Origin: Clostridia bacterium
Lineage (GTDB): Bacteria > Bacillota > Clostridia > Christensenellales > CAG-314
Assembly (NCBI GenBank): GCA_017407305.1
Contig: JAFQWS010000040.1
Span: forward strand, 1 to 32,792
Direction of reading: 5' to 3'
Length of the DNA stretch: 32,792 nt
Position 1 is the stretch's first letter. The number at the start of each line of letters is the position of its first letter. The notes beneath the pieces are model-generated. The model was not told the DNA's origin. It saw nothing but the letters and a program-made list of their open reading frames with translations, and made no database searches. This document shows, in pieces, positions 6,508 through 24,112 of the stretch. A program made the translations under genes and the position numbers.

Positions 6508-6564
6508 GAACTCAAATAAAACTCAACTTTTTTTGGGAATTTCAAAAAAAATTTTGTTAAAGTG

Positions 6565-6593
6565 TTCACCTTAATTTTTCTATGGTGTATAAT
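6565..6593 (+). promoter_or_regulatory. Sigma-70 promoter for the fibre-subunit operon
   Basis: TTCACC (6565-6570), a 17-nt spacer, then TATAAT (6588-6593). This predicts a ~150-nt A/T-rich 5' leader before the ATG at 6746. Confidence 0.5.
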
Positions 6594-6745: not shown

Positions 6746-7711
6746 ATGTCCAGCAAAAAATTGTTCATTTCAATCATGACTTTGACCGTCACAATTTTTA
6801 CTTGTGTCGCCAGCGTTTTTGCCTGGTTTTTCAACGCACAAACGGGTATGTTTGGTGGTGTCAACATTGACGCTTCTGACGTTTTGAAAACGGTTGTTTC
6901 ACAAGACGGTTCTACTTGGCAAGAGTCAATGACTTTCGGTTCGGCAAGTTACAACTTTTCCTTGCTTTCAGGAACGGGTACAGTGGTGGGTGAACAACTC
7001 AATTTGGTACGTCCCGTGGTAGATGGTTTGACCGGCCAAGTAAAAGTGAACAGCTCAGGTCAATGGTTGTTGGATTCGGCTCCTCAAAAAGATGTTGACT
7101 TTATTGAATTTGACTTGTACGTCAAGACAAATTTGCAATCGGTTGTTTCCTTTGGCGAAGAAACTTACGTACGTCCCAAAGTTGCTGACGTTGCCAACAA
7201 TCAACGTAAAGCATCCAAGTTGGGTTACACACAAAGCCAATATGGAAGCTTTTCCATCGACTATCTTTCTGCGGCAACGCGCATGTCTATCAATAAGGTG
7301 GACGACAACGGTGAAACACTTTTGTGCTTGTGGGCTCCCAACGAAAACGTTCGCCTTCGTTGTGTAGATGTAGACAAATTCGTTTTATACACTGACGAAA
7401 GCCAATTTTCCAGCGACTCGACACAATACCTCTTTACGGAATTTCAATATTTGCAAAGTTACTCTTTTTACGACAACGCAATTTTGACGGAAAGAACTGT
7501 TGAAAGTCAAGATGATTGGTTCGTTACCGACATTGGTGACTTTTCCTACGAAATGCAATTGACTGATGCTCAAGACGGAGCATATGTATCCCACTTTGTG
7601 ATTCGCATTTGGATGGAAGGCTGTGACGCAGAAGCCCACTCGGCATTGGCAACGGGCGATGCAGAAATTGAAATCAACTTGCAAATCGCAACAACGTTGG
7701 TTACTGGCTAA
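6746..7711 (+). CDS. Secreted TasA/camelysin-like fibre subunit paralog 1 (SipW-type signal peptide)
   Basis: N-terminal TM segment then SVFA-WF (codons A-W-F at 6821-6829). Shared family blocks AATRMSI, LWAPN and IRIWMEGCDAEAH (W at 7610). No LPXTG motif and no C-terminal TM segment. Confidence 0.7.
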   Translation: MSSKKLFISIMTLTVTIFTCVASVFAWFFNAQTGMFGGVNIDASDVLKTVVSQDGSTWQESMTFGSASYNFSLLSGTGTVVGEQLNLVRPVVDGLTGQVKVNSSGQWLLDSAPQKDVDFIEFDLYVKTNLQSVVSFGEETYVRPKVADVANNQRKASKLGYTQSQYGSFSIDYLSAATRMSINKVDDNGETLLCLWAPNENVRLRCVDVDKFVLYTDESQFSSDSTQYLFTEFQYLQSYSFYDNAILTERTVESQDDWFVTDIGDFSYEMQLTDAQDGAYVSHFVIRIWMEGCDAEAHSALATGDAEIEINLQIATTLVTG

Positions 7712-7766: not shown

Positions 7767-8720
7767 ATGAAAACAAACGCAAACAACAACGTAAATAAAA
7801 CAAGACGCATGGCACTGGTTGCCTTGTCTTTGGTTGTCGTTTTGTTGTTGTCGGTTGGAGTTACCCTTGCATGGTTTATCAACTATCAACTTACGCAACT
7901 TGGTGGCTCGACGGTTACCGTTACGGGAAGCAGAGTTTTGCAATTTTCCTTCTTTGACGAGGAAAATCCCGACCAATCGGTTTACGTCAGTCAAGCAACT
8001 CAAAGTTTTGAAGAATATGGATTGACACACGTTACAGGCAACGGCATAGATTTTTGGATTCCCTCGTTGGAACAACAAGATTCCAGTGCGTCGGTGGACG
8101 TGGGTGGCACTTGGACAAAAGCATTGGCTACCGACGGTACAGCACCAGGTGACTACATCAGTTTGTGCCTCAAGTTCTTTTCCGAAGATGTCATGGACGT
8201 TTATTTGAGCGCAGAAAGTTCCGTGCTTCCTGCAACGGAAAGCAACCCCAGCAACTACGGAGACTTTTCCAGAAACAACATTGCATCGGCCAGTCGCATT
8301 TCCTTTTTGAATACAACGTTTGATCAAGAGTGGAACAAGACGGAACAATTCAATTTTGTTTGGATTCCCAACGTCAACGGCCAATTGATTGAAACCAACG
8401 GAAGATTTTCCTTCAACTTAAACGGAACACCCGAAACGTCCTACTCTTACTACTATATCAATTCAAACGACGAAAAGGTGTCTGCAACGTTTAACGCAAC
8501 ACAATATATAACAGCCCCCACAGCACAAATCGGCGCAGAAGCACCTCAAGATGGAACGGGTTACGTCACAACTTTGCAAGAAGGGGAAAACGGACAATAC
8601 ACAGCCTACGTAACCATAAACATTTGGGTGGAAGGTTGCGACAGAGAATGTCGCAGAGCATTGGCAGGTGGACAATTTGACGTTTACTTGCAATTTATCG
8701 GTATTACGACACAACAATAA
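7767..8720 (+). CDS. Secreted TasA/camelysin-like fibre subunit paralog 2
   Basis: N-terminal TM segment then VTLA-WF. Family blocks SASRISF, VWIPN and INIWVEGCDRECR (W at 8625). Confidence 0.7.
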   Translation: MKTNANNNVNKTRRMALVALSLVVVLLLSVGVTLAWFINYQLTQLGGSTVTVTGSRVLQFSFFDEENPDQSVYVSQATQSFEEYGLTHVTGNGIDFWIPSLEQQDSSASVDVGGTWTKALATDGTAPGDYISLCLKFFSEDVMDVYLSAESSVLPATESNPSNYGDFSRNNIASASRISFLNTTFDQEWNKTEQFNFVWIPNVNGQLIETNGRFSFNLNGTPETSYSYYYINSNDEKVSATFNATQYITAPTAQIGAEAPQDGTGYVTTLQEGENGQYTAYVTINIWVEGCDRECRRALAGGQFDVYLQFIGITTQQ

Positions 8721-8728: not shown

Positions 8729-9910
8729 ATGAAAAGTGGATTCAAAAACAAAAACTTAATACTAGCAATCGTAGCCATCATCCAAACGATTTTAATCGTC
8801 ACGATGGTAACCTTTGCGTGGATTGAAGGTGTGGATGAATCCAGACTTCACGGCAACAACGTTGGCATTTCTTCCTCTCCCAAATTGCTCATTTCATTGA
8901 GTGACGTCGTGGGCACGATTGAAATCAACGATTTTATCGACCAAGATTTTGCATTGAAAGAAGTTTCCAGCATTGACGGCAAAAACTTGTTCGTTGCAGA
9001 AGGTTACGAAAACGTAGGTGGCAAAACTTTCCGCACTTTGCGTCAAGCAACCGATTTAATGGACAAAAACATTTCTTATCTTCAATTTGACGTAAGCATG
9101 GTGTTTGATGCAAGTGGTCAATTTGAAGACAAGTTGATGAACGTTTTTATCAATCCCTACAAATCGTACGTAATCAAATCTCAAGACGCAACGGTCGATC
9201 GCAACCTTTTGGGAATTGAAGCAGGTGCCATGCAAGCCTTTGCAGAAAGTCAAGGTTTTGCAGACGTGGAAGCATATTTTACAGATTTCGTATCCAAAAC
9301 CAGACAACGTTTGGGCTTGGGCGAAGATGCTCAACTTACGGCAGATCAACTTGATGACTATTACGATTACTTATATGTCAATCAAGACAACCCCAATATT
9401 CCCGATTGCCCTCCCTACAAACCTCGTTATGCAACAACGTGGGATGAAACGGGCTATTTGGTATCACAACAAGCACCCTCTGCAGTGCTCAACCCTATTC
9501 GTGTTTCTTTGACCTACAACGACACAACAGTCATTATGGGTATGCGTGAAGAAGACAACGGAGCCATGACTTGGGAACAACTTGTTGCTGATGCAAGTGC
9601 AACCAAAGCAGTCAGCGCGCTCATCAGAGAGTGGTCGGAATTGAGTTTAACACAAGACCAAATTATGCAACAAGACGTCAAAGCACACATTGCAGGACAA
9701 AGAGTTTATTCTTTGTGTGGCACAATGGCAAATTCATTTGGATGCAATGCACAAAACAAATTGTTCACCTTAAATCCCAACCAAGAAATTATCGTTACAA
9801 TTCGCATTTGGTTGGAAGGTGGCGACGTAGAAACGACGGATGAAATTGCCAATACCGAATTTGATATTCAGTTATATTTTGACACGTCCATCGTAGATCA
9901 AACAAATTAG
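8729..9910 (+). CDS. Secreted TasA/camelysin-like fibre subunit paralog 3 (with large central insertion)
   Basis: N-terminal TM segment then VTFA-WI. Family blocks NPIRVSL and IRIWLEGGDVETT (W at 9809, no Cys). It is about 100 aa longer than its neighbours through a central acidic, Tyr-rich insert. Confidence 0.65.
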   Translation: MKSGFKNKNLILAIVAIIQTILIVTMVTFAWIEGVDESRLHGNNVGISSSPKLLISLSDVVGTIEINDFIDQDFALKEVSSIDGKNLFVAEGYENVGGKTFRTLRQATDLMDKNISYLQFDVSMVFDASGQFEDKLMNVFINPYKSYVIKSQDATVDRNLLGIEAGAMQAFAESQGFADVEAYFTDFVSKTRQRLGLGEDAQLTADQLDDYYDYLYVNQDNPNIPDCPPYKPRYATTWDETGYLVSQQAPSAVLNPIRVSLTYNDTTVIMGMREEDNGAMTWEQLVADASATKAVSALIREWSELSLTQDQIMQQDVKAHIAGQRVYSLCGTMANSFGCNAQNKLFTLNPNQEIIVTIRIWLEGGDVETTDEIANTEFDIQLYFDTSIVDQTN

Positions 9911-9920: not shown

Positions 9921-10538
9921 ATGAAATCTACTTCCAGTTTGTTAAAAATCACTTGGATTTTGTTTTTGACAATGTTGTGTGTTGTCAGTTACACCTTTGC
10001 GTGGTTTTCCGTGGAATATTATGTTGGTAATTCGCTTAGATACACCAAACGACTTTCCATTGTGTCGGCATCCAACATTGTAGTAGAAAACTACTACGTA
10101 ACGCGCCAAGATCAAACGGACGTGTTTATTGAACAAAACGGCACTTTTGCATTAGACAACTTGGCACCCAATCAAACACAACAATTCAAAACCGTTATTT
10201 CCAACACAAACGGCGATCACGCAGTTAGAGTAAATCTTTTCATTGACCGTCTCAGTTACACACCTGCGCTCAACAACTACTTGTACGTCAGTGTTTATTC
10301 TCAATCGGCAACACAATGGTACAATTACAACTCCGGTTATTCTGAAACGACGGCTCTTATCAATGGACAACAACACGAGTTGTACCAACAAACGTCCGTA
10401 CAAATTGCAGATTCCATTGAAATTCAACCCAACGAAACGGTCACGATTGTTTGGGAAATTCTGCTCAACAAAAACGCAGGTGATGATTGTCAAGGCGCAT
10501 ACGTGCTTATCAACAATCTTATTATAGGACTTGCATAA
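9921..10538 (+). CDS. Small TasA/camelysin-like subunit paralog 4 (closest to the canonical M73/TasA pattern)
   Basis: Strong RBS aggaga. TM segment then YTFA-WF. LAPNQTQQFKTVISNTNG resembles TasA L-K-P-G-D..F.F.N.G. The C-terminal IVWEILLNKNAGDDCQGAYVLINNL resembles the TasA/camelysin N-x-Y-Q-G-x-s-phi-x-phi-x-F terminal strand. Confidence 0.7.
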   Translation: MKSTSSLLKITWILFLTMLCVVSYTFAWFSVEYYVGNSLRYTKRLSIVSASNIVVENYYVTRQDQTDVFIEQNGTFALDNLAPNQTQQFKTVISNTNGDHAVRVNLFIDRLSYTPALNNYLYVSVYSQSATQWYNYNSGYSETTALINGQQHELYQQTSVQIADSIEIQPNETVTIVWEILLNKNAGDDCQGAYVLINNLIIGLA

Positions 10539-10541: not shown

Positions 10542-11150
10542 ATGACCATCAAAAAAATACTCAACGCAATTTCTTCAATATTTATTGCAATTTTGCTTTT
10601 GTTGGCAGTGATGTTGATGCTCAACCGATTTGTTTTCAAACAAGACGATATGTTTGGCTATCAAGTGTATTACGTGTCCACAGGCAGTATGGAGCCGTCC
10701 ATTCCCGAAGGTTCCTTGATATTGTGTAAAGCAGTGGAATTTGAAGAATTGGAAGAAGGTGACGTCATTACCTTTGTGTCGCAACAAGGCGAAACGAGGG
10801 GAATGCGCATCACACACGAAATTGTGAATATCGACCCTCAAACGGGTTTAATTACAACAAAAGGGGAAGCCAACCCCCACGAAGACGACGAAAAAGTCAG
10901 TTTCGAAAACGTTTTGGGCGAATATCAACGCACTTTGGTTATTTTTGGCTGGGTGTACCGAGTGTTCATCACACCTTGGGGATTGTTGATATTTATTGCT
11001 CCATTGCTGGCAGCCGTTGTCTTTGAACTTGTCAACCTTTTCAAAAGCGCAAAAGAGGAGCAAGAAAAAGAAGAGCAAGAGGAAGATCTTGCCAAAAAAT
11101 ACGAAAAACAACTTATTGAACAATACTTAAAAGATAAAAAAGATGAATAA
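10542..11150 (+). CDS. sipW: Signal peptidase I, archaeal/ER-type (S26B), SipW-like, copy 1
   Basis: N-terminal TM segment. Motifs TGSMEPSIPEGS (Ser box), GDVITF, ITHEIV (His of the Ser-His dyad) and TKGEANPHEDD. A C-terminal TM segment is followed by a Lys/Glu-rich tail. The stop overlaps the start of the giant gene (ATGAATAA). Confidence 0.85.
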   Translation: MTIKKILNAISSIFIAILLLLAVMLMLNRFVFKQDDMFGYQVYYVSTGSMEPSIPEGSLILCKAVEFEELEEGDVITFVSQQGETRGMRITHEIVNIDPQTGLITTKGEANPHEDDEKVSFENVLGEYQRTLVIFGWVYRVFITPWGLLIFIAPLLAAVVFELVNLFKSAKEEQEKEEQEEDLAKKYEKQLIEQYLKDKKDE

Positions 11151-14100
11151 ACAAAATCAATTCAAATCTTCATACGCAAGACTCAAAGGTGTCAAGGGCT
11201 TAACAACCTACACCTTGCTTTTGCTTGTCTTGGTTTTGATTACGTTTACCGTATTTGCATGGTTTACAGCCACTGTTACGCCTTTTGACGGAACAGTTTC
11301 CATGGCATCCATTTCGGCAAACGTGGTTTTGTTTGACGACGAATTGGATACCAACAACTATTTGCGAGTACTTGGTCAACAATCTTCCTTCACAACGGAC
11401 ACAACGGCATCCATGTACAACTATGGAACGTATCCCGTCAACGGAAGCAACACTTATATGACCAACTATTTGCAAATTACAAACACTTGCGAACTTGATT
11501 TGAAAGCTTACGTCAAGTATTTGTTTACATACGACGTTGGTGCAGACGATTCTTTCTTTGACTACTACTATTTCCTTATCACAGACATTACGGACGAAGT
11601 TTTGGGATATTCCGACAGCGTTGACCAAGTTGCTGAAAGTGAACAAGGTCTTGCAATGCTCACGTTATACAACCAAGCATATTCTGAAACCTTTGCCAGC
11701 AACGTAGAAAGAGTATCTTCCATTTACGACTCCGAAGACAAAAAGGTAATGAGCGACCTTCGTCGCAACAGCCAAATTTGTCCCGAAATCATTTCTATGG
11801 ACGAAACTCGTTACTTCAGAATTGACTTTTGCTGTTACGATATGCCTTCCACGTCAGTTGATGGTGTAGAATTTTCTTTCAGTTCACTCATCACTTTGAA
11901 ACAAAAGGATGCGCCTGGCAACGATGGTGAAGACGTCGACGAAGGAGCCGAAGATCTTTCCAGCAGTGAAGAATTTTTGCGTTTCATTTCTCAAGCAAGC
12001 AACGGTCAAACAATTCGTTTGGCAACGGACATCAAAGTTGAAGCAAGTGTCACAATCACGTCAAGACTTAACATTGACCTCAACGGCCACACGTTGGAAA
12101 TCGCAGGCGACCTTGTTTATGAAACAATGTCGGCAGGCAAGTGTTATTTGGATGCATCTCGTGTCAACAACGACTACACTTACAGCCAATTGTTGATTGG
12201 TGGCAACTTGACCATCAATATGCCCAATGCAGAATTTAAAATTATTGGCATTGAAAACGCAGACAACATTGTTTTGAACTACGGAACCACTCGTGACGAA
12301 GTTGCCTTTACGGCAAACTGTGTAAGAGACACCAACGTATACTCTGCCGTCAACCAAGACAGCTTCTTGGCAGGCTTGGTGTTGGAAAATGCACACCTTG
12401 TCATTATGGAAAGTTCCATCAGTTCACGAGTTGCAGACGTTTACTTGGACAGCAACACACGTTTGGAATTGACTTCTGGCTCAAGTGTAGCCAACGTTTA
12501 CAACGTACAAGGCGCACACGACGTTGAAATTGTCAACAAAGGCACAATTCATCAAATCAACTTGTCCACTTTGCAACATTCTGGTTCCACAAGTGGCGAC
12601 TATTACGAAATTGAAATCTACAATGAAGATGGTACCTTTACAAGCAAGGGCGAAAACCTTTCTGCAGCAATCTTGCTTCCTTCTTGGTCTGTAGGTTTGT
12701 ACTCTGCATCTCAAAATCCTTCTTTTGGAACGCCCAACACCTACGTTTACACAACGGTCTTGGACTGGTACGTAAGACCCACAAGCAACAACAGCTTTAC
12801 ACAAAACGACATTGTTCGTTCCGGTTCCAGCGTTGATCTTGTAACCTTTATTTCCAAGGGTGAATATCGTATTTCCTTAAAGGACACCGATTATGTAGAA
12901 GAAACTATTCATCAATATCTCACGCAATACTTCCTCAACGTCGAAAGTGAGGGCGTATTGGCAGGCGACAGTGTAGAAACCATCACATCTCTTACCATTT
13001 ACACCTATGACGAAGTTCGTTTGGGCAATGTGGCAACAAGTGGCGACTACATCAACGACTGGGAATTTATGCGCACACGCATGACCAGTTTGTCAATTTT
13101 GAACCTTGCTTTTGCAGAATTGGCAAACGACGAAATTCCTGACGGCGCATTTGACGGCAAAACCTCATTGGAAATTGTCACCTTGCCTACAAGTAACTAC
13201 GCACCCAATGGTTACGCCATTGGCGACAATGCATTTAGAGGCACCAGCATCAAAGAAATCAACCTCAGTTCTTTGTGCACAGCCATTGGCACAGATGCTT
13301 TCAAAGTTGGCAACGAACTTTCCGTTGACCAATTGGATTGGTTGGTAATCAACTGGACGGATACGTCTGCAATGAGCAGTTCTTTGCTCAACGCACTCAA
13401 CGTAGATCGTACAGTGGTCTTTATGCGTACGTCAGTGTACAATGCTTTCCGTCAAACAGCCGAACGTGATTCAACGTGGTTCTACAACGTATATGAAGCA
13501 TACTCGGTAAAAGTGGAAGATGCAGTACACGATTGCATTTACTACTTGACGACTGTTTCCGGCAACACGGTAAAAGTTGTATATTACAGTGGTGCAATTT
13601 GGGACGGAACTGTAAATTCCACAATCAACAGCAATTACAACGTGGTGGAAATTGGCCAATCGGCATATTACCACGCATTTAGAATTGACGACAAAGCAAG
13701 CAGTACAGTTTGCAATCTTTCACAACAATGCACCAGCATTGGTGCAGACGCATTTAGAAACGGCAACTTTGCAAGCCTCAATTTGGGTGGTGCAACCTAC
13801 GTTGGCGACTATGCCTTTGAAGGTGCATCCATCACAACGGTTTCTGCTCGTACAACGGTAAACGTCACCTACTTGGGCGAATATGCTTTCAGCAACGTTT
13901 TGATTGGTGCAATTGGTTCGGCACAAAGCGTTTTGGATTTGTCTGCAACGGGCAACAGCAAACTTGCTTTTGGTCAAGGCGCATTTGAAAACGCAACAAT
14001 CAGAAATGCAACGTTGATTTTCAACAATCTTGAAAATTGGCAATCATCCCTTATAAGTGGTGCAACCTTCAGCCAAGTAACACTTGACTTGACAGGCACA

Positions 14101-17100
14101 ACGACAATTTCTGCTCTTTCCTTTGTATATACGGAAGAAGGCGAAAACGTTGCAGTATTTGATGCAACTTATCAAGAACAAAACAACTTGTATTTATACA
14201 ACTGCTACAACATCCAAGCAAACGCACTCAACGGCGTACAAGTAAATGAACTTGGCTTTGGTATTGTTGCAGGAAGCTTCACGACACAAGCACAAGTTGA
14301 TGCAGTTTCCTCAATGGGCGACGGCGAAAGCGGTATTTTGGTCAATTCCCAAGACTATCCTACGGCAGTAGAAAAGGTTATTGTACACGGTTGGTTGCCT
14401 CAAGAAGTCAGCGAAACAGCCACAAGCAATTTCAAACATTTCTTGGGTGGCGCAAACACCTCCTTTGCACTTGAAATTGGACAACAACATGCCAATGCAG
14501 GTTCAGTTTGGAACTATTTCGTTTATGACGTAGAAGAGGACGACCACACAGTTATCACCAATTTGACGTTGGACGAAACGGTCACGTCCATTGGACATCG
14601 TTCCTTTGGCAACGTAGAAATTCAAAACACACAACTTGATTTGACTGCTGTTGAAAGCTATGACGAATACGCATTTGATACGGCGGTATTCCCCTACTTG
14701 ACAGACGTTATATTCTCCGACACAGAAGTTTCTGCACGTGCATTTGCATACAGCACGTTTACAATTTTGCAAACTTTGGATTTGACCACCGTCAACCAAA
14801 TTGGCGCAGGTGCTTTCTATCAAGCAAAATTCCCCGCATTGACAAGATTGGACCTTTCCAACACCAACACAATTGGCGCACAAGCATTCTATCAAGCAGA
14901 GATTGGCACAAGCAATTTGTTGATTGATGCAACTGACGTACTCAACATGGGTACAAACGCACTTGGCGTTATTCATCAAGGTTTGCCTTCCGAAGATGAC
15001 GCAAACTCTGGTGTAGTGGTTGGTATCGGTGACCAAACAACCAACTTGTCTGCTTGCAACTATGATGCAAACTTGTTCTACAACGGACAAGCAAACATGG
15101 GCTTTACCTATCTTACAATCAATGGTGGTTTGCCTCAAAACGCATCCAGAGCGTTTGCAGGTTTCAGCGTGGGCGACACAACCTATCAAACCATTGACGT
15201 TGCCAACACAACGTCATTGCCCGAATATTTGTTCTCATCCAATCGCGTGGGCGCACTCAACGTTGGACAACTTCGTTATATGACCAACGTAACTCTTACG
15301 TCCGGTGGTGCAGTTCCCGCCTTTGGTAACGAGATTTACAGTTACAACGCAAATTTGGGCAAATTTGAAGCATTGGTACAACGTCCTGACAACTGGAACA
15401 CAAACTACTTCGACTACTTTACGACAATGGGTTCTACTCAACTTTCACTTGGCGAAGCAACCTTTGGTGGCATTTTGTGGAATGACACAGAAAGTGGTTG
15501 GTGGGAAAGATTTTTCACACACGTAGATGCATTGACAGCAACAAAGATGTTTGCCTATGGCAAGTTCAGCAATTTCAGCGAAAACACTTTCGCATTGAAC
15601 ATTAACTTGGGCGAACAAGCATTTTTCAACGCAGAATTTTCCGATTTGGAAAAACTTATCATTGTTGCCAACGAGCACAACGTCACAATTTTGGACGACG
15701 TTTTTGCCAACGCAACGATGAACAACGTCCAAGAAATTGACGTTTACACCGATGGTTACACTTTGACAATTGGCAATCAATTGTTCCACGGTGCATCACT
15801 TGAAAATCTTGCAAGCATTGCCGTCACAACAAATACGGGTGTGTTGACAATTGGCGACAATATGTTTGATGGTTGTACGCTTCCCGTCACGTCTGCAACT
15901 TTCACAACGGGTGCAAGTTGGGCAACCATTGGCGACAACGTATTTGCAAATTCTTCACTTGGCAATTTGACAACGTTTACTTTGACCAGTGGAGAGGGCG
16001 CATTGACAATTGATGGTTATCTCTTTGGCGAAGGTGCAAACCTATCTCAATTGCAAACTCTTACGGTAACGACAGCAGGTGGAGCAGTCACGTTGCAAGG
16101 TTTGATCAACCAAGCAGAAAACTTGACTTCATTGTTAGCCATCAACATCACCACAGGGTCCACGGAAGTTGCTGGTATCAACGCAGGTACGTTGACCATT
16201 TCCGAAACGGCAATTGTCAACGTTACGCAAGATGTTTTGAGCGGTTTGGAACGCATTTTGGTACAACCGAGCAAAGGCGCAATTTACGTTTCCAGTATTG
16301 CCGACGGCATTACCTTCAACAACGCATTTGATACACTTCAACTTGCATCTTCCACGTACAACACAAACGCAACACTCACTTTGGAAAGTGGCGTATTGTA
16401 CGACAGCACAGCAACAGGTTTGACACAAATCAACTTTGCAGTAAACAGTTCCAACTTGATTGTCAACGGCACCTTCCAAGGAAGCACCTTGTCCGGTGTG
16501 CAAAACATCACGGCACAAATCAATTCCACAGGTTCGTTGACTTTGGCAGACGGATTGTTTGAAAGTTGCGACCTAACGGCATTGGCAACGTGCGACCTTG
16601 CAGGTGCCTACAAAGTGGGCAACGATTTGTTCAAAAACGCAACGTTTGGACAAGTAGTCAATGTTGACTTGCGCAACGTATTGCAAGTTGGCGCACACTT
16701 GTTTGAATCGTCAGGAAACGTCACGTTGGGCAACGTTTACGTTGGTATCAACGACGCATCTTTGAAGGCACACGCACTTCAACCTCAAAACCACAACTAC
16801 GACTGTTTCTATGGTTTAGGTGACGGAACGTCCGCCAACATTTTTGGAACAACGGCAAGGGTAACAATTGCAAACCTTGTTGTGGACGGCGAATTGCCCA
16901 CCTACAACAGTGCGCAAATGTTTGGTTTGACCACAACGGGTGGCGAACTCAACTTTACGCAATTGACCATCACGGAAAACTGCTCGCAATTGCCCAATGC
17001 AGTATTCTTTGAACAAGCAGGTCAAATCACAATTAGCCAAATCAACGCATGTATTTCCTTGGAAAACAGCACGTTGAGAACGACAACAATTTCCATTGGC

Positions 17101-20100
17101 GACAACGCATTTAAAAACGTAACCATCAATGGTGCAGGATTCTTTGCCAACTTGTCCGACAATATCACGTCCATTGGTGCAAGTGCATTTGAAGGTGTCA
17201 CAATTCAAGACACTCAAAAATTCAACTTTGTCAACCTTACCACCAACGGAACGGCAATTGGCAACGGCGCATTCAAAGGCGCAACACTTTATACAAGTGA
17301 AATCGAATTTAGACAAGGCACAACTCTTGGCGAAAGTGCTTTTGAAGGTGCAACCTTCAACAACGCAGTCACAGTCACGGCAACCTCCCTTGTAGGCATT
17401 GGCGCAAGAGCCTTTGCCCAAGCAGAGTTGAGAGCAAATTCCTCTTTCGACTTCACGTTGACCACGACCATTGGCGACGAATTGTTTAGTCAAGCTCTCC
17501 TTCGTTCGGGCGACACGGCAAACAGCGTTGCAGTTAATATGGTCAACGTAAGACAACTTGGCAAACACGTATTTTACAATACGGACTTTGTTTCAACGTT
17601 GACGTTGGGAATTACGACAAACACAAGCGGTGCCTACTATGCTTCGGCAGAGGGTGGTTACACCATTTTTGGTGGTACGACAACCATTGGAACTGTGGAA
17701 GTTGTCAATGCAATTCCCACAACAGGCGTGGAAAACGCATTTGGTATTGAATCGGCCGACACTCAAGGTCGTTTGACAATCAACACGGTACTCATTTCCA
17801 ACGCAGTCAAAACCTTGCCCGACCAATTGTTTGCAGGTGCAACTTCACGCATGAAAATTGGAACGTTGCAACTTGGCGACAGTGTCAACGTTATCAGCGA
17901 AGACTTTGCAATTGGTCAACAATGCTTCTATCAAGTGTCCTTTGAAAGTTTTGCAATTTACTTTGCAAACGACTACACAGCCGACACAATTATTGAAAGT
18001 TATGCTTTCCAAGGCTCAATTTTGGGCAACGAAGCCAACCAAAACACAACGTTTGCAACCTTGCTCAGCCAAGTAACGGAAATTCAAGCCAACGCCTTTG
18101 ACGGTGCAACGGCATACTTTGGTGGTGGCGACGTAACCATTGTAGATGCAAGCATCAGACAAAACGCATTTACAAATGCAACCCTTTCCAACGTTGGATT
18201 GATTACAATTGAAAACACAACTTTGGAAACAAACGCTTTCAACGGAGCAATTATTTCAGGCCCCACTGCTTCGACGTTTGACCTTGTCATCACAAACGGA
18301 ACGACAATCAGCGAAAGCTGTTTTGCAGGGGCAACGCTTACTCGAATTGGTACGATTTCGGTAGACGACAGCACCATCGCAAGCAAGGGCTTTGCCAACG
18401 TCAATGCAAGTTCGGCAACGTTGCTAACTTTGACAAACGTTGGAGAAATTGGCTCGCAAGCATTTTATCAAGCCAACTTGGCATCCGTTGCAACAGCAAC
18501 AATCACCACTGCAGACAAACTTGGCGACAGCGCATTTGAAGGTGCAAACTTTGAACGTTTGACAACGTTACAAATTCAAGACGTTCCCGTCATTGGTACT
18601 GCAGTCTTTACAAACGCAACGTTGACAAATCTTGCACAATTGTCCATTGTTTGCGACCAATCTTTGTTGGACAGCAAAGCAACGGCAATTGGCGACAGCG
18701 CGTTTGCCAACTTGACGTTGACCAGCCTTTCAACTTTGACTTTGGTCAACTACGAAACAATTGGAAACCTTGCCTTTTACGACACCCCTATGAGCGAAGT
18801 AACAACCTTTACGCTCACTTTGGAAAGTGGTTACGTTGGAAGAATTGGCAACAAAGCCTTTGCCAACGTTCAATTGCAAAACTTGACCACCAACGGACTT
18901 GCCTTTGACGGCTATCAATACATTGGCAATTCCACAGAAGACAGTTACGTCTTTGCCAACGCATTCAAAGGTGGCATTGACCTTGACTTGACCGACGCTC
19001 GTGTCATTGGCAAATATTCCTTTGCAAGTTGTCAATTGGGCACGGTCACAATGGGCAACAGTACCTATGCAACCAGTGGTCAATACAGTTGGGGTGGCGG
19101 ACACGCAATCTTCACCGGTATTAAAGATGAAGACTACTCCAACTCAACGATTGCTTTCTTGGACGTCGTTGCACCCATGCCCACCAGCGCACAATACGTG
19201 TTTGGTGCAGACATCGTTGAGATGGATGCTCCCACCTACACAACGGTACGCTTTGGCGAAACGGTCAACACAATTCCCGACTATGCGTTCAATGCAGAGT
19301 TTGACACGGTAACGTTAAACAACCCTCGTCCTACAGTTCAAATTGAAAACTTGTACTTGATGTATCAACCCGATTACAACAACGGCGACTACTTCTATTT
19401 GGGCAACGTTTCTCACGCAGCCAAATTTATGGGTGCAGACAGTATGCCTACAAACTGGGTATTTGTTCATTACACGTCTATGCAAACAGACGGTTGGACA
19501 GCAACAGCAACCCACACTATTTTCTACTTGACGACTATTACGAGAATTTACGTTCCTGCAGGTACAGTTGACGATTATGAAAAATCAGCATTGGGCAGTT
19601 ACTATTGTATTAACAACGATGTTCGTTCGACCTTGCTTGGTACAACTGGTAACAGAACTTATACATCATGGGGTTCTGGCACGTATTTTGCATTTGAGTC
19701 AGCAAACCGTGATACAGTGCCTACCATTGCAAATAATGGTTTGCAAAACAAATTCAACACGTTGTCAACGGCATCAGACGATTGGACGTTTACAATCTTG
19801 AACGGCAACGAAGTTGCATTGGTTTCCTACGAAGGCACAGGCGACGTCACAATTCCTGCAACAATCACAAGCGGTGGCACGGATTATACGGTTGTGGAAG
19901 TGCTCAGTTCCGTTTTGCAAGGCACAACGGCGGAAATTGTCACAATTGGTGCAAACGTTCGCACAATTGGTGTTGACGGAATCAGTTCCACAATCAGACA
20001 ATTCAACGTCGACAACAACGCAAGATTTAGTGCAAGTTATTACTATCAAATAGACACAACCACAGGAAACGGCAACAATGCCAACACAACGACGACGTTC

Positions 20101-20559
20101 GGAACGTTTGACACTCCTCAGACCAACACAAACCGTGTCACTTATACTTTGTTGGGTTGCACTTTGTACAATGGAGACGGCACGACGTTGATAAGATATG
20201 CCCCCGGCAGTACTGCAGAAACGTTTACGGTACCTTCCACAGTGCGAGTTGTTGGCTCTTACGCCTTTGATGGAGTAACTCTTACCACGTTGACCTTCGA
20301 AGCCAACACAATGTTGTTCTTGTCCAGCAATGCTTTCAGAACGACAACAATTCAAAACTACCTATTCCAAGGAACGACAGCCCCCATTTTGGCAGGGGAA
20401 GACGTATTTTATATGTATCGTTCCATCAACATAAATGCAAGTCCCTCTGCCTACACTTACACAACTGCCTATTCAATCACGGTGGAAAGTGCAACGGCAT
20501 ACAACGCATTTATGAACAGTCCTTATTGGAGCATCCTTGCACCCATTATGGATTACTAA
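11143..20559 (+). CDS. Giant (3138 aa) surface protein: SipW-type signal peptide, fibre-subunit-like N-domain, beta-helix-like region and long BspA-type LRR (LRR_5) arrays
   Basis: TM segment then TVFA-WF, followed by a family-like N-domain (ISANVVLF; RYFRIDFCCYD..GVEFSFSSLITLKQ at ~11812-11900). A TITSRLNIDLNGHTLEIAGDL-type beta-helix signature is present. Dozens of IG-x-x-AF-x-x-phi repeats (IGDNAFRG, IGADAFRN, VGDYAFEG, ...) are typical of BspA/LRR_5 cell-surface proteins. No LPXTG motif and no C-terminal TM segment. Confidence 0.8.
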   Translation: MNKQNQFKSSYARLKGVKGLTTYTLLLLVLVLITFTVFAWFTATVTPFDGTVSMASISANVVLFDDELDTNNYLRVLGQQSSFTTDTTASMYNYGTYPVNGSNTYMTNYLQITNTCELDLKAYVKYLFTYDVGADDSFFDYYYFLITDITDEVLGYSDSVDQVAESEQGLAMLTLYNQAYSETFASNVERVSSIYDSEDKKVMSDLRRNSQICPEIISMDETRYFRIDFCCYDMPSTSVDGVEFSFSSLITLKQKDAPGNDGEDVDEGAEDLSSSEEFLRFISQASNGQTIRLATDIKVEASVTITSRLNIDLNGHTLEIAGDLVYETMSAGKCYLDASRVNNDYTYSQLLIGGNLTINMPNAEFKIIGIENADNIVLNYGTTRDEVAFTANCVRDTNVYSAVNQDSFLAGLVLENAHLVIMESSISSRVADVYLDSNTRLELTSGSSVANVYNVQGAHDVEIVNKGTIHQINLSTLQHSGSTSGDYYEIEIYNEDGTFTSKGENLSAAILLPSWSVGLYSASQNPSFGTPNTYVYTTVLDWYVRPTSNNSFTQNDIVRSGSSVDLVTFISKGEYRISLKDTDYVEETIHQYLTQYFLNVESEGVLAGDSVETITSLTIYTYDEVRLGNVATSGDYINDWEFMRTRMTSLSILNLAFAELANDEIPDGAFDGKTSLEIVTLPTSNYAPNGYAIGDNAFRGTSIKEINLSSLCTAIGTDAFKVGNELSVDQLDWLVINWTDTSAMSSSLLNALNVDRTVVFMRTSVYNAFRQTAERDSTWFYNVYEAYSVKVEDAVHDCIYYLTTVSGNTVKVVYYSGAIWDGTVNSTINSNYNVVEIGQSAYYHAFRIDDKASSTVCNLSQQCTSIGADAFRNGNFASLNLGGATYVGDYAFEGASITTVSARTTVNVTYLGEYAFSNVLIGAIGSAQSVLDLSATGNSKLAFGQGAFENATIRNATLIFNNLENWQSSLISGATFSQVTLDLTGTTTISALSFVYTEEGENVAVFDATYQEQNNLYLYNCYNIQANALNGVQVNELGFGIVAGSFTTQAQVDAVSSMGDGESGILVNSQDYPTAVEKVIVHGWLPQEVSETATSNFKHFLGGANTSFALEIGQQHANAGSVWNYFVYDVEEDDHTVITNLTLDETVTSIGHRSFGNVEIQNTQLDLTAVESYDEYAFDTAVFPYLTDVIFSDTEVSARAFAYSTFTILQTLDLTTVNQIGAGAFYQAKFPALTRLDLSNTNTIGAQAFYQAEIGTSNLLIDATDVLNMGTNALGVIHQGLPSEDDANSGVVVGIGDQTTNLSACNYDANLFYNGQANMGFTYLTINGGLPQNASRAFAGFSVGDTTYQTIDVANTTSLPEYLFSSNRVGALNVGQLRYMTNVTLTSGGAVPAFGNEIYSYNANLGKFEALVQRPDNWNTNYFDYFTTMGSTQLSLGEATFGGILWNDTESGWWERFFTHVDALTATKMFAYGKFSNFSENTFALNINLGEQAFFNAEFSDLEKLIIVANEHNVTILDDVFANATMNNVQEIDVYTDGYTLTIGNQLFHGASLENLASIAVTTNTGVLTIGDNMFDGCTLPVTSATFTTGASWATIGDNVFANSSLGNLTTFTLTSGEGALTIDGYLFGEGANLSQLQTLTVTTAGGAVTLQGLINQAENLTSLLAINITTGSTEVAGINAGTLTISETAIVNVTQDVLSGLERILVQPSKGAIYVSSIADGITFNNAFDTLQLASSTYNTNATLTLESGVLYDSTATGLTQINFAVNSSNLIVNGTFQGSTLSGVQNITAQINSTGSLTLADGLFESCDLTALATCDLAGAYKVGNDLFKNATFGQVVNVDLRNVLQVGAHLFESSGNVTLGNVYVGINDASLKAHALQPQNHNYDCFYGLGDGTSANIFGTTARVTIANLVVDGELPTYNSAQMFGLTTTGGELNFTQLTITENCSQLPNAVFFEQAGQITISQINACISLENSTLRTTTISIGDNAFKNVTINGAGFFANLSDNITSIGASAFEGVTIQDTQKFNFVNLTTNGTAIGNGAFKGATLYTSEIEFRQGTTLGESAFEGATFNNAVTVTATSLVGIGARAFAQAELRANSSFDFTLTTTIGDELFSQALLRSGDTANSVAVNMVNVRQLGKHVFYNTDFVSTLTLGITTNTSGAYYASAEGGYTIFGGTTTIGTVEVVNAIPTTGVENAFGIESADTQGRLTINTVLISNAVKTLPDQLFAGATSRMKIGTLQLGDSVNVISEDFAIGQQCFYQVSFESFAIYFANDYTADTIIESYAFQGSILGNEANQNTTFATLLSQVTEIQANAFDGATAYFGGGDVTIVDASIRQNAFTNATLSNVGLITIENTTLETNAFNGAIISGPTASTFDLVITNGTTISESCFAGATLTRIGTISVDDSTIASKGFANVNASSATLLTLTNVGEIGSQAFYQANLASVATATITTADKLGDSAFEGANFERLTTLQIQDVPVIGTAVFTNATLTNLAQLSIVCDQSLLDSKATAIGDSAFANLTLTSLSTLTLVNYETIGNLAFYDTPMSEVTTFTLTLESGYVGRIGNKAFANVQLQNLTTNGLAFDGYQYIGNSTEDSYVFANAFKGGIDLDLTDARVIGKYSFASCQLGTVTMGNSTYATSGQYSWGGGHAIFTGIKDEDYSNSTIAFLDVVAPMPTSAQYVFGADIVEMDAPTYTTVRFGETVNTIPDYAFNAEFDTVTLNNPRPTVQIENLYLMYQPDYNNGDYFYLGNVSHAAKFMGADSMPTNWVFVHYTSMQTDGWTATATHTIFYLTTITRIYVPAGTVDDYEKSALGSYYCINNDVRSTLLGTTGNRTYTSWGSGTYFAFESANRDTVPTIANNGLQNKFNTLSTASDDWTFTILNGNEVALVSYEGTGDVTIPATITSGGTDYTVVEVLSSVLQGTTAEIVTIGANVRTIGVDGISSTIRQFNVDNNARFSASYYYQIDTTTGNGNNANTTTTFGTFDTPQTNTNRVTYTLLGCTLYNGDGTTLIRYAPGSTAETFTVPSTVRVVGSYAFDGVTLTTLTFEANTMLFLSSNAFRTTTIQNYLFQGTTAPILAGEDVFYMYRSININASPSAYTYTTAYSITVESATAYNAFMNSPYWSILAPIMDY

Positions 20560-20575: not shown

Positions 20576-20613
20576 GAGTGATGCGTCTTGAACGCAATCA
20601 AGACGCATCACTC
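20576..20613 (+). other. Perfect 16-bp-stem hairpin immediately after the giant gene (no U-tract)
   Basis: gagtgatgcgtcttga (20576-20591), loop acgcaa, tcaagacgcatcactc (20598-20613). It is followed by caaag rather than a T-run, so it is not a canonical intrinsic terminator. It could be an RNA-stability or processing element, or a weak terminator. Confidence 0.5.
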
Positions 20614-20717: not shown

Positions 20718-21725
20718 ATGGCAAAGAAAAAAGACTCAAAACTTAATATAAGCGAGCAAGAGCTTTCCGAAGGCAATTTGGCGCTCAACGACAAGTTGGA
20801 AGAGGCAGCCAAGGCAAAGTTGTCTGAAGTTCAAGAAAGGTTGCCCGACGAAATTTCCGTAAAGGACTACGAAAAGTTTATTCAAAGTCTCATTGACAAA
20901 AAGGAAATCACAGGCACAAGCACCGTCAGTGTCACCCACACAGCGCAAAAAAATGCCGAACTCAGCATCAATCGTCGAATGAAAGCAAAAGTGGTGGCAA
21001 CCACAGCCGTATTTTTGATTATGCTTATGTTCATTGCATACTTGTTGGCATTGTTGTTGCTTTCCATGGGTAACTTCTCGGTAGAGGTGGACACCATGAA
21101 TCCCGAATGGGCATTGTCCTTGTCCAAAGACAGCAACTTTTCCGATCCGTCCAACTCATTGCAGGCCGAACCACTTCGCGAAATGCGCGACATGGCGTTT
21201 AACGAGGTGTTGCAAGTTCCCGACCAGTCAGCGCTGTTAGACACGCTGAAAGACCTTCAAAACAAGTCCACTCAGACGGAAGAGGACGAGTTTATGCTCA
21301 ACACTTTTTACGTACGCAACGACAGTCCCGTTGACGTCAACTATTGTTGGGAATTGCTTGTCACAGAAGAAACGAAAGACCTTGGCAAAGCAGTGCGCAT
21401 TTTGGTCATCAAAAACGCCTATTTGGGCGAAGAGGGCTGTGAGTATTGGTTTTTTGCCAAAGCCAACCCGGACGGCACACAACCATTTGTTGTGGAAGAA
21501 AGCCGAGTGGGAGGCAACAGTTATTTCCTTTCAGCCGAGACAATCAACTTCCAAAGTGACGCCATAGTTGCCAGCATTACCGAAAACATAATGCAAGATG
21601 GCGCCGTTGACGTTTACACGGTTATTTTGTGGATTGAGGGAAGTGACGTCGATTGTGACCAATCACGATTGGGAGGCACCTTGGCAGTGGCAATGAAACT
21701 GACCATCTTAAATCAAGCCGACTGA
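20718..21725 (+). CDS. Fibre-subunit paralog 6 with ~100-aa cytoplasmic N-terminal extension and signal-anchor (candidate membrane anchor)
   Basis: I prefer ATG 20718 (MAKKKDS, ggaag 5 nt upstream) over the TTG at 20655. The N-terminus is charged and coiled-coil-like. It is followed by a TM segment (TAVFLIMLMFIAYLLALLLLS) and then MG-NFSVEV in place of xA-WF. Family blocks KAVRILV and VILWIEGSDVDCD (W at 21630) are retained. Confidence 0.65.
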   Translation: MAKKKDSKLNISEQELSEGNLALNDKLEEAAKAKLSEVQERLPDEISVKDYEKFIQSLIDKKEITGTSTVSVTHTAQKNAELSINRRMKAKVVATTAVFLIMLMFIAYLLALLLLSMGNFSVEVDTMNPEWALSLSKDSNFSDPSNSLQAEPLREMRDMAFNEVLQVPDQSALLDTLKDLQNKSTQTEEDEFMLNTFYVRNDSPVDVNYCWELLVTEETKDLGKAVRILVIKNAYLGEEGCEYWFFAKANPDGTQPFVVEESRVGGNSYFLSAETINFQSDAIVASITENIMQDGAVDVYTVILWIEGSDVDCDQSRLGGTLAVAMKLTILNQAD

Positions 21726-21849: not shown

Positions 21850-22686
21850 ATGAAAAACAGCAAAAGCAAAGTTTTGATGACGTCCGTCATTATGTTGGTC
21901 GTTGCAGTTATGGCATTGACCACAGCAACCTACGCATGGTTCATCTCTGCAGACTCTGCAAGCGTAACTGATATCACAATGCAAGCCGCATCCGCAAGCG
22001 GTATTCGTTTCTCTGCAGACAACGGCACAACTTGGAAAAACTACTTGGTAGTTGGTGAAGCAAGTGACAATGCTACTCCCGACATTGAGATTGAAATTCC
22101 TAGTGATGGTTACAATCCTACGTCCACAAACGCAGTGTTGAATAGTGGAGCATTTAGTTTTTTCTATGCACATAGCTACGAAGACGGTTTCGTTGTTGTC
22201 GAAGAAGATCCAGCAAACTTTATCCATCTTGCATTCAAAATTAGATTGGATGGCGACTCTGCAACAACACAACATCTTTGGTTGACAAGTGACTCTGCAA
22301 TTACATCTAATGGTTCTTTGGATTCTATTCTTAGAGTTGCATTTGTTTACAACAATACAGTCAAAGTATGGCAACCCAACCAAGAACAAGCAAATACATA
22401 CAAACCTCTTGTCACTGAAAAAGAAAGTGTTCAATTGCCCGTAAGCTCCATTATCACAGATACAGACGTTATTGGCGACGAAATTGGTAGTAACCACCTT
22501 GTTGGCGGAGCAGCAAATTTGCCTGTTTTTGACTTCGCAAACCCCCAAGGAACTTCAGTAGAATATGACGTAGAAATCTACATCTGGCTTGAAGGTCAAG
22601 ATCCAGACTGCACCAACGCAGTTGCAAGCCAAAACATCACGGCAAATCTTGTCTTCACATTTATTGATCCCACAAACAACGGCTAA
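21850..22686 (+). CDS. Fibre-subunit paralog 7, candidate major subunit
   Basis: It has the best RBS in the locus (aggagg, 9 nt before the ATG) and sits after a 124-nt gap containing a possible promoter (TTGAAT 21782-21787, ..aatact). TM segment then ATYA-WF. Family blocks ILRVAFVY, VWQPN and IYIWLEGQDPDCT (W at 22585). The mature protein is compact at about 250 aa. Confidence 0.7.
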   Translation: MKNSKSKVLMTSVIMLVVAVMALTTATYAWFISADSASVTDITMQAASASGIRFSADNGTTWKNYLVVGEASDNATPDIEIEIPSDGYNPTSTNAVLNSGAFSFFYAHSYEDGFVVVEEDPANFIHLAFKIRLDGDSATTQHLWLTSDSAITSNGSLDSILRVAFVYNNTVKVWQPNQEQANTYKPLVTEKESVQLPVSSIITDTDVIGDEIGSNHLVGGAANLPVFDFANPQGTSVEYDVEIYIWLEGQDPDCTNAVASQNITANLVFTFIDPTNNG

Positions 22687-22799: not shown

Positions 22800-22870
22800 G
22801 CAAGGTTGTATTTGCAAGAATGAGTGCAAAGTTTGCCTTTTTGGTCACGTCAATTTTGGTACAAGAAACA

Positions 22871-24112
22871 ATGACTCACGAAAAAGTGCAACTTGCCAAA
22901 AGCAAATTGTTGCTTTCCATCTTGTCTGTGGCAATCACCCTTGTGATGCTCACAACCTCTACCTATGCATGGTTTGTCACCGAACAAAGTGCCACCATGT
23001 CGCAAATGCAGGTAACGGCAGACATTGATGCAACAATCACCTTTACGGCAGGAGACGTTGACCTTGACGGCAACGTAATTTGGACAACGTCCGCCTTCAA
23101 CACAATCACCACCGATAATTTGCGCAACGCACAAACCAACAACAGCATTCCCCAAGGGACGGTTGGCAATCTTTCTTGTGCAGGAAACCTTGTCTATGGC
23201 TCTTATGGTTGGCAACTCGGTTTGTATTCAGCAGACTGTCGTGGTGGTCAATTTCAGTCAACTTTGACGTCACAACTTGTATCCGAGCCCAATTACTTTG
23301 CGTCCGACTTAAATTTTTATGCCTTTGATTTGTATGCTCACACAGAGCTTGAAACAACCTTGTGCATAAAACAATCCAGCATAGTTTACGCAATTGATCA
23401 CGCAACTTCATCCCAATTTGACATGTCCAACGCAGTGCGCGTTGCCTTTGTCTACTTTGGAACGTTTGACGCACACCATCGTGACGTGGCTTTTCAAACT
23501 GCACGCAGTGCGTCAATGAACGACAGTTGTCAAGTGGTCGTGTGGGAACCCAACGCACTTTCCCACAATCAAGACAACCCCATCCCTGATGGTGCTTTGC
23601 AACCCTATTGTGCAGTTGCAGGTGCATCAAACCAACCTTTCGACTCAACAACACCAGGACAATTTCTTCGTCAAATGGTGCCCGGTCAAAACTTCGTGTA
23701 CACAGCCACCAATTTTATTGGCGACGTTCCCTTGTTTGACGTGACTCCCGGCGTTTCAAAACTTCGCGTTTATTTGTGGTTGGAAGGTCAAGACGGAGAC
23801 TGCACCGACCAATCGGCCGGTTGCACCGTATGTGCTGACTTGGTTATTGGCATTTTAGATATGCAAGAAGAAGACCTTTCAGTCGGCACCATCAACTTTG
23901 GCACAGTTTCCGGCTGTGAACAAATGGGATCTCCCTTGGCAAGCAAAGTATTTACCACTTTGCCCAAAACAGCACAAGATTTTACACAATACGTACAGGC
24001 TGTGGAAGGCTATACCTTTGTCGGCTGGTACAGTGATTCCAATGGACAAACCCCTTTCAACGGCAACGTGGAATACAATTCCACCCTTTATGCCAAGTTT
24101 GAATTGGCCTAA
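22871..24112 (+). CDS. Fibre-subunit paralog 8 with C-terminal Listeria-Bacteroides (Flg_new/InlB B-repeat-like) domain
   Basis: The listed ORF starts at 22754, before and running through the hairpin above. ATG 22871 (MTHEKVQLAKSK) gives a normal n-region, TM segment and STYA-WF. Family blocks NAVRVAFVY, VWEPN and VYLWLEGQDGDCTDQSAGCTVC (W at 23777). The C-terminal EGYTFVGWYSDSNGQTPFNGNVEYNSTLYAKF matches the G-Y-x-F-x-G-W-Y...LYA-x-(W/F) repeat signature. Confidence 0.65.
   Translation: MTHEKVQLAKSKLLLSILSVAITLVMLTTSTYAWFVTEQSATMSQMQVTADIDATITFTAGDVDLDGNVIWTTSAFNTITTDNLRNAQTNNSIPQGTVGNLSCAGNLVYGSYGWQLGLYSADCRGGQFQSTLTSQLVSEPNYFASDLNFYAFDLYAHTELETTLCIKQSSIVYAIDHATSSQFDMSNAVRVAFVYFGTFDAHHRDVAFQTARSASMNDSCQVVVWEPNALSHNQDNPIPDGALQPYCAVAGASNQPFDSTTPGQFLRQMVPGQNFVYTATNFIGDVPLFDVTPGVSKLRVYLWLEGQDGDCTDQSAGCTVCADLVIGILDMQEEDLSVGTINFGTVSGCEQMGSPLASKVFTTLPKTAQDFTQYVQAVEGYTFVGWYSDSNGQTPFNGNVEYNSTLYAKFELA

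Follow-up and report, generated by a model that had tools for sequence, protein, structure and literature searches.

The stretch of DNA analysed here (the window) is a 32,792-bp contig (JAFQWS010000040.1, locus tags IJF72_*) of the metagenome-assembled genome (MAG) of an uncultured gut Clostridia bacterium. At positions 11143-20559 it contains an open reading frame (ORF) of 3138 amino acids (aa), deposited as MBQ2723382.1 with the NCBI name 'leucine-rich repeat protein' and called the giant below, that ends the first of two modules in a cluster encoding pilin-like small proteins and SipW-type signal peptidases. We propose tentatively, with somewhat less than an even chance of being right, that the giant is processed by SipW and serves a donor-strand fibre as its terminal adhesin or its initiator, and that it is not a paralog of the fibre subunits. 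Attachment through the N-terminus is the economical reading because the giant and the small proteins share a signal and cleavage junction that are specific to the cluster, and because the giant has no conventional anchor. The initial annotation of this DNA had also argued for N-terminal attachment to a fibre; cluster membership, the signal, the absent anchor and a conserved operon speak for that part of its case, and the part that made the N-terminus a subunit paralog is not supported.

All relevant genes are on the + strand. Module A consists of p1 (6746..7711), p2 (7767..8720), p3 (8729..9910), p4 (9921..10538), sipW-1 (10542..11150) and the giant, with successive gaps from p1 to the giant of 55, 8, 10, 3 and -8 nt. 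The ATG of the giant lies inside 'GATGAATAA' and, as had been recognised, the gene begins within the end of sipW-1, with ATGAATAA constituting an 8-nt overlap with the sipW-1 stop that recurs identically in orthologous contigs. The minus-strand ORFs beneath the giant are short and unconserved. The sipW-1 product is an archaeal/endoplasmic reticulum (ER)-type signal peptidase I; it matches the SipW model NF046067 (E = 5.5e-26) with 91.3 bits, which is under the 190-bit cut-off of that equivalog, and TIGR02228, the model for archaeal/ER-type signal peptidases I, with 79.9 bits, which is above the cut-off of 51.85.

The giant has a mass of 338 kDa, not the megadalton scale first suggested, and an isoelectric point (pI) of 4.15. 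Residues 1-39 (11143..11259) form a SipW-class signal peptide with a 22-residue hydrophobic region (h-region) that ends T-V-F-A, and are followed by a domain of 24.5 kDa and pI 4.05 at residues 40-254 (11260..11904), the N-domain, that begins W-F and ends ITLKQ. An acidic linker (KDAPGNDGEDVDEGAEDLSSSEE; residues 255-277, 11905..11973) leads to a conserved beta-rich region with no assigned fold (residues 278-640, 11974..13062; '...NGHTLEIAGDL...') that is kept in long homologues and missing from a 681-aa form. This region had been described as beta-helix-like, a description that finds no backing in Pfam or the PDB, where it has no match. The remainder, residues 641-3138 (13063..20556), is a 267-kDa body of BspA-type leucine-rich repeats (LRR), presumed to be the binding part of the giant. 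The repeats, which the initial annotation had correctly identified, match LRR_5 (PF13306) with E = 4.1e-65 and a score of 217.9 bits (cut-off 27.7) and make up 10 stretches from about residue 640 to 3100, and when the giant was scanned in 314-aa chunks LRR_5 was found in 7 of the 10, in 5 of them above the gathering score. A Pfam scan of the full giant returned nothing besides LRR_5, NCBIfam gave no match, and self-BLASTP at 1e-5 detected no internal super-repeats. In agreement with the initial annotation, there is no LPXTG, SLH, CW_binding, LysM, GW or C-terminal transmembrane (TM) anchor detectable by Pfam, NCBIfam, or hydropathy and motif scans. The sole LPXTG-like motif is an internal LPVTS at residue 1580, and the sole hydrophobic segment spans residues 17-45.

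The SipW-type signal and TVFA|WF junction previously assigned to the giant are present. Of the 77 ORFs of at least 100 aa in the window, exactly 7 have [AS]W[FI] after a hydrophobic stretch, and all 7 (p1, p2, p3, p4, the giant, p6 and p7) belong to the cluster. Aligned by HHalign, the signal of the giant matches that of the small-subunit family with P = 4.7e-8 over 40 columns. All homologues of the giant keep [TV]-[FY]-[AS]|W-F, in which positions -1 and -3 are small and mature position 2 is aromatic, and cleavage is predicted between A39 and W40. The mature W40-F41 is invariant in every homologue, and we count it as a sequence feature shared with the aromatic position 2 of TasA, whose mature N-terminus is A-F (PDB 8AUR). 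TasA polymerises via an N-terminal strand that is freed by SipW cleavage, its mature N-terminus being A28-F29, with F29 a key donor-strand contact (PMC9674648). AbpX homologues also keep an aromatic residue at position 2 (bioRxiv 10.64898/2026.01.04.697558).

Beyond the signal the giant shows no significant similarity to the small subunits. The proteins p1, p2, p3, p5, p6 and p7 (the last three from a second module, B, located downstream) and 32 database relatives form one family, with leave-one-out HHalign P values of 1e-7 to 1e-32, a mature domain of ~250 aa, and as marks a T-Y-A|W-F junction, A-R-V-S, W-x-P-N and a C-terminal I-W-L-E-G-x-D-x-x-C. The module A members are p1 (321 aa; SVFA|WF junction, C-terminal motif IWMEGCD, leave-one-out HHalign P = 3.6e-16), p2 (317 aa; HHalign P = 2.2e-14) and p3 (393 aa; TFA|WI junction, left-out hmmsearch E = 5.8e-11), all pilin-like. 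The first ~255 aa of the giant had been held to resemble these subunits. Its first 262 aa could not, however, be placed in the family. The best BLASTP match between the N-terminus and the small paralogs has E = 1.3, and HHalign aligns only the signal and the first 6-14 mature residues with the family (P = 8e-7 to 5e-8), an outcome that was the same for N-domain profiles of 3, 5 and 9 sequences. When the signal was trimmed off, the comparison with the family gave P = 0.16 and that with p4 gave P = 0.38. A search by hmmsearch --max with a hidden Markov model (HMM) of the mature family matched no giant, although it did pick up p3, which had been left out of the model (E = 6e-11), as well as distant members of the family. 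A-R-V-S, W-x-P-N and I-W-L-E-G-x-D-x-x-C are absent from the giant. The RYFRIDFCCYD... block that had been read as a degenerate version of the last motif does exist, and is conserved through to ITLKQ in distant homologues, but has no significant similarity to the IWLEGxDxxC block. Paralogy of the N-domain with the small subunits is therefore not shown, there being no detectable sequence homology past the signal and junction, or about residue 48. The same is true of p4 (205 aa), a divergent small protein with the signal and junction of p1-p3, whose significant similarity to the family and to the giant is confined to the signal region; profile methods thus have limited power for such diverged beta-rich proteins. 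An internal match between the N-domain and p4 (P = 1.4e-4) vanished once the signal was trimmed and was not used. An AlphaFold2 (AF2) model of the N-domain from a 3-sequence input was uninformative, and as its predicted local distance difference test score (pLDDT) was only 43.7 the Foldseek output obtained with it was discarded. In sequence terms the outcome is the one that the initial annotation had named as refuting its proposal, and in structural terms the model decides neither way.

The N-domain is a conserved entity in its own right, with no match in Pfam, NCBIfam or the PDB. A phmmer search with residues 40-265 against 1.84 billion representatives returned three relevant proteins, the giant itself, a 3101-aa giant (P0042, 27% identity) and a truncated giant (P0040, 31% identity), and no stand-alone small homologue of the N-domain. 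Five more loci were obtained by a degenerate-pattern scan of Joint Genome Institute (JGI) metagenomes, a scan that gave nothing when based on close orthologues and gave these loci when based on the divergent alignment. A word-indexed search with residues 1-300 had no match, although the giant itself is in that collection, and so negatives from such searches with fragments of very long proteins cannot be trusted. The N-domain is thereby documented in 7 independent lineages, at 22-31% identity over ~215 aa, with W40, F41, A59, G78, Y109, N114, D119, K121, T150, V153, P235 and Q254 invariant and with an end that conforms to ITLKQ-x-x-A-P, or to VTTQ in the short form of loci L021 and L022. Wherever the sequence extends beyond the N-domain, the homologues are built of a signal, the N-domain, an acidic or serine/threonine-rich linker and LRR_5 cargo (the L017 and L020 sequences stop just past the linker), and complete proteins range from 681 aa (L021/L022) to the 3138 aa of the giant.

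The gene neighbourhood is conserved as well. Wherever upstream DNA was recovered, the order is a p3-like gene, a p4-like gene, sipW in some lineages, and the N-domain-LRR gene, with the p4-like gene directly 5′ of the giant, or of sipW and the giant, in all lineages. The full order p1-p2-p3-p4-sipW-giant, including the p1 ortholog, is present in the yak-caecum MAG loci L015 and L016 (GCA_964568705.1). When the window is compared with L015, identity is 80% over the first 100 aa of the giant, which are among its most conserved parts, 44-85% elsewhere in the protein and 68% for SipW-1. Module B (p5-p6-p7-sipW-2) is absent 3′ of the giant in L016, the one distant homologue for which downstream DNA was recovered. 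The earlier choice of p7 as the partner of the giant is disfavoured by this absence and by the position of p7 in module B; the conserved neighbours are p4 and p3. As the build and the p3/p4 neighbours are constant and the cargo is variable, the N-domain behaves as a private, conserved docking-type module that travels with p4, and p4 is a candidate partner of the giant, either as an adaptor or as a minor subunit. It is possible, though on balance doubtful, that the N-domain and p4 together form a hitherto unrecognised tip-complex module of SipW-dependent, chaperone-free donor-strand pili in uncultured gut Clostridia, a plug for interchangeable LRR cargos that need no wall anchor.

According to the mechanism that we propose, translation of the giant would be coupled to that of sipW-1 and the product would be exported by Sec. 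SipW-1 would then cut at T-V-F-A|W-F, the junction common to p1-p4, and the new N-terminus (W40-F41 and the following strand) and the 215-aa N-domain would dock on the p1-p4 fibre, probably via p4, with the N-terminal strand donated into the groove of a subunit, for which p4 or p3 is the likeliest candidate. Projecting outward from there, the acidic linker and a stretch of about 2,850 aa with BspA-type LRR would offer a binding surface. A strand donor without a groove can cap only one end of a fibre, which fits a single-copy gene located last in its operon. Also in support of a fibre-borne giant are the dedicated SipW-type peptidases, of which there are two in the cluster, and the recurrence of C-terminal cargo on modules of SipW type, with Flg_new on p7 and both CBM26 and Flg_new on pilin-like proteins of L021.

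Several points weigh against this mechanism. Polymerisation of these proteins is something that we infer, and the position of the giant at the tip rather than at the base is conjecture. With a pLDDT of 43.7, the N-domain model lends no support to a groove or donor strand. For module A itself no membrane or wall anchor is obvious: p5, which resembles one, is a module B protein, and in L016 the giant is not followed by any p5-like gene. The 22-residue h-region could serve as an uncleaved signal-anchor, and the values obtained with the signal trimmed (P = 0.16-0.38) mean that the feature shared with the subunits could be a mere peptidase recognition signal.

Were it such a signal, the giant might be routed through SipW but act independently of a fibre, being either set free or retained loosely on the surface or within the matrix, with some other role for the N-domain. 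The signal region is all that is demonstrably shared, the giant is very acidic and anchorless, and Clostridium perfringens BsaC provides the precedent of a large binding-domain protein encoded in a SipW operon (PMC11580942). We nevertheless think this unlikely, as the N-domain and the p3/p4 neighbours are strictly kept across lineages while the length of the cargo varies, few parts of the giant are as conserved as its N-terminus, and an invariant mature W-F exceeds the needs of a cleavage site.

The converse explanation is that the N-domain is, after all, a true but highly diverged subunit paralog, with both a groove and a donor strand, in which case the giant would decorate the fibre, possibly at many positions. 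Its signal and junction are identical in type to those of the subunits, its 215 aa are a pilin-like size, a greedy alignment with p4 and p6 is colinear but non-significant, and the failure to detect p4, itself a plausible diverged member, shows how little power the tests have; p7 and the 505-aa protein of L021 are, moreover, real family members with C-terminal cargo. Even so, we judge the paralog explanation quite improbable. The mature domain was not significant by BLASTP, hmmsearch --max or HHalign, even with the 9-sequence profile, the IWLEGxDxxC hallmark is missing, a 330-kDa cargo on repeating subunits would cause steric hindrance in a thin fibre, and a single-copy gene at the end of an operon is typical of tip or initiator components. 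Retention of the signal as an uncleaved anchor, making the giant a type II membrane protein with the N-domain, linker and residues 278-640 as a stalk through the wall, would account for the sole hydrophobic segment being N-terminal, with an h-region of TM length (~22 residues) after K/R, and for the lack of any other anchor, but has a low probability given that the small subunits share equally long h-regions and the junction, that the small -3/-1 residues and invariant W-F are conserved, and that two dedicated peptidases adjoin their substrates, with translation of the giant coupled to sipW-1.

The initial annotation had called the fibre module TasA-like. Neither Peptidase_M73 nor any other TasA model matched the giant, the N-domain homologues, p4 or the 38 members of the small-subunit family, and PDB profile searches with the small subunits and the N-domain did not reach TasA at E <= 10 and found no pilin of any kind. 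The TasA label is thus without sequence support from HMM or PDB searches, for the subunits and the N-domain alike. Compared directly with TasA (8AUR), the N-domain profile aligned 'YLxVENTGxIDLKxxLK' with 'FQFENNGSLAIKEVLM', a colinear 24-column 'ENxGxIxIK' match with HHalign P = 0.023 and a score of 21.3 that exceeded those of all 120 shuffles (mean 12.5, standard deviation 2.1); we regard this as a lead and not a finding. An AF2 model of p6, the pilin-like subunit described below, was of better quality (pLDDT 83, predicted template modelling score 0.80), and Foldseek gave no match to it at E <= 1e-3 and no TasA among the 50 matches listed. The best were self-complemented FimA pilins (2M5G, 5LP9, 5NKT, 6ERJ, 6R7E, 6R74) at E ~1e-2 and TM-scores of 0.26-0.42. 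Weak matches to Pilin_N (best E = 0.077) raised the idea of type IV pilins, which was rejected: neither a G|F-x-x-x-E site nor one of archaeal class III is present, the helix in the AF2 model is the TM segment only and is followed by a disordered junction, and the cluster contains SipW genes and not a prepilin peptidase.

Of the systems already described, TapA (tapA-sipW-tasA operon, Bacillus subtilis) resembles the giant in being encoded next to sipW, in being processed by SipW (as predicted for the giant), and in having only N-terminal residues in common with the fibre subunit. TapA shares the N-terminal residues of TasA and has been proposed to be the first-strand donor at one end of the fibre (PMC9674648). 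It differs in its size of 253 aa and lack of adhesive cargo, no sequence similarity to the giant was detected, and its partner is TasA whereas the partner subunits of the giant are not TasA-family proteins by any HMM. The archaeal Tafi fibre has been modelled with TafC as tip, TafE as adaptor, TafA as rod, TafF as TM anchor and TafD as peptidase (PMC11821415, PMC12337348). TafC is, as the giant would be, a two-part protein with an N-terminal pilin-docking domain and a C-terminal adhesive domain, and the Tafi locus, like that of the giant, has several pilin paralogs, a dedicated SipW-like peptidase and an anchor composed of a TM segment and a pilin domain (here p5), an analogy of layout and not of homology. 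The Tafi pilin fold and the p6 model match the same FimA entries in the PDB, p6 weakly. Tafi proteins are, however, mostly exported by the twin-arginine (Tat) pathway, the cargo of TafC is laminin-G-like rather than 2,850 aa of LRR, and there is no TafG/DUF5305 at the locus of the giant. The AbpX-type loci of the TasA superfamily have predicted tips, minor subunits, bacterial SLH/LPXTG anchors and a signal peptidase I (SPase I), with AlphaFold3 predicting co-assembly by strand complementation (bioRxiv 10.64898/2026.01.04.697558). They also combine a module competent for strand exchange with other domains, a group to which the giant may belong by analogy, but the bacterial examples are wall anchors and not giant adhesins, and their SPase I has ten TM helices.

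Further parallels are provided by FimH and PapG, in which, as proposed here, a single adhesin per fibre is attached by donor-strand complementation through adaptors, a role in which p4 could parallel FimF/FimG. These adhesins are Gram-negative, depend on a chaperone and an usher, and accept a strand with their C-terminal pilin domain, whereas the N-terminal end of the giant would donate one. With the BspA-like LRR_5 proteins of gut and oral anaerobes the giant shares its LRR_5 body. Typical BspA-like proteins have ordinary signals and separate anchoring domains; the giant, in contrast, combines a signal of the SipW class with a private N-domain and lacks an anchor. BsaC, from the C. perfringens sipW-bsaA-bsaB-bsaC operon, is likewise large, with a binding domain and a signal peptide, and belongs to a matrix operon of SipW/TasA-like type but, unlike the giant, is ~70 kDa, has a vWA domain, depends for its secretion on type IV pilus proteins and has no shown attachment to BsaA polymers (PMC11580942).

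Little is understood of how very large adhesins come to be displayed by monoderm gut anaerobes when no sortase, SLH or choline-binding anchor is involved, and the giant had been put forward as a new mode of adhesin display. It is not wholly so, as TapA, TafC tips, and AbpX tips and anchors precede it (PMC9674648, PMC11821415, PMC12337348, bioRxiv 10.64898/2026.01.04.697558). The combination of a strand-exchange module, an adhesive or anchoring part and a dedicated SPase I is a published idea, modelled and not structurally demonstrated, for archaea and for bacterial anchors. What is new is a bacterial AWF/IWLEGxD pilin-like family, the N-domain/p4 pair, and LRR cargo of up to 2,850 aa. Apart from add-on modules, neither the family nor the N-domain and p4 has a match in Pfam, NCBIfam or the PDB, and a literature search on SipW systems together with LRR/BspA adhesins found no paper linking the two. 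If the giant is a terminal adhesin, the TapA/TafC principle of an N-terminal strand inserted into a SipW-processed fibre extends to giant bacterial LRR adhesins, and cleavage at A39|W40 and p4-dependent mounting on filaments of p1-p3 are predicted. If, in addition, the N-domain and p4 form an interchangeable module, the appendage would be a modular device, carried on a fibre, with which the cell binds substrate or host. The N-domain could also serve as a handle in searches for similar adhesins in metagenomes.

Module B begins downstream of the giant with p5 (20718..21725), which encodes 335 aa: a cytoplasmic N-terminus of ~90 aa, one TM helix, no AWF junction, and then the family domain, with residues 191-330 matching the small-subunit family at HHalign P = 1.5e-7. 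With this TafF-like layout, p5 is a candidate membrane anchor or base for a module B fibre. It is followed by p6 (21850..22686; 278 aa), a pilin-like subunit and the candidate major exposed subunit of the module, by p7 (22868..24112, with an uncertain start at 22820 or 22868), a pilin-like subunit with a C-terminal Flg_new (Listeria-Bacteroides repeat), and by sipW-2 (24203..24904). The sipW-2 product is a second archaeal/ER-type signal peptidase I (NF046067, E = 4e-26, 91.8 bits, below the cut-off of 190; TIGR02228, 59.3 bits, above the cut-off of 51.85). Together with a LepB-type enzyme encoded at 1316-1957 (Peptidase_S26, E = 4e-29), the two SipW-type enzymes give the contig three signal peptidases I, and each SipW gene may serve one module.

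The p6 sequence is hypervariable among near-identical strains, with 84%, 52% and 52% identity in L001, L003 and L004, respectively, whereas identity in those strains is 96-100% for its surroundings, namely p5, p7 and sipW-2, the giant, and the genes further downstream. This looks like allelic replacement of, or diversifying selection on, a major exposed subunit. A 15-bp perfect palindrome (22766-22799) and a small hairpin, GGGCTTTTTGCCC, at ~22711-22723 lie between p6 and p7 and may constitute a terminator or attenuator after the gene for the putative major subunit.

Cargo similar to that of p7 is encoded at L021 (JGI contig OJAR01000405.1), where positions 323-1837 encode a 505-aa protein with the pilin-like domain of the family at residues 54-265 and a C-terminal CBM26 starch-binding module. 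The adjacent 1867-4641 encodes 925 aa with the same SWIEGG-type signal junction, Flg_new, Flg_new_2 and CBM26, in which the N-terminal part had no match to the mature-family HMM. The cargos of p7 and of L021 suggest substrate-binding modules displayed on the fibre. At L018 (JGI contig Ga0265295_1002727), another SipW-like gene is located between genes for two small proteins at 1137-3079, 5′ of the p3-p4-giant genes. The junctions of these small proteins, AYA|WWD and TYA|FFD, are of the classical TasA type and consequently a more canonical TasA-like set adjoins the giant module in L018.

Transcription of module A, from p1 to the giant, has as its candidate promoter a TTCACC-17-TATAAT sequence (6565..6593, + strand), a match to the consensus only, in the AT-rich region 5′ of p1 (G+C content 0.30 across 6001-7000). 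A direct repeat, AAATTGTGGATAA, is present twice with a spacing of ~21 nt in the window at 6470-6510, ~60 nt 5′ of the promoter-like site, and could be a regulator binding site. An Rfam scan of the whole window, for example for a cyclic di-GMP riboswitch before p1, returned no match. Read directly from the sequence, a hairpin with a perfect 16-bp stem, a 6-nt loop and no T-run lies 17 nt past the giant stop (20576..20613, + strand), where the module A transcript may end or be processed. After sipW-2, three coupled genes with preceding gaps of 20, 1 and -4 nt occupy 24925-30429 and encode proteins of 533, 492 and 808 aa with no significant Pfam match. The first has a Walker-A-like GISGTGKTS, the other two are charged and repetitive, and all three genes are 99-100% conserved in L003.

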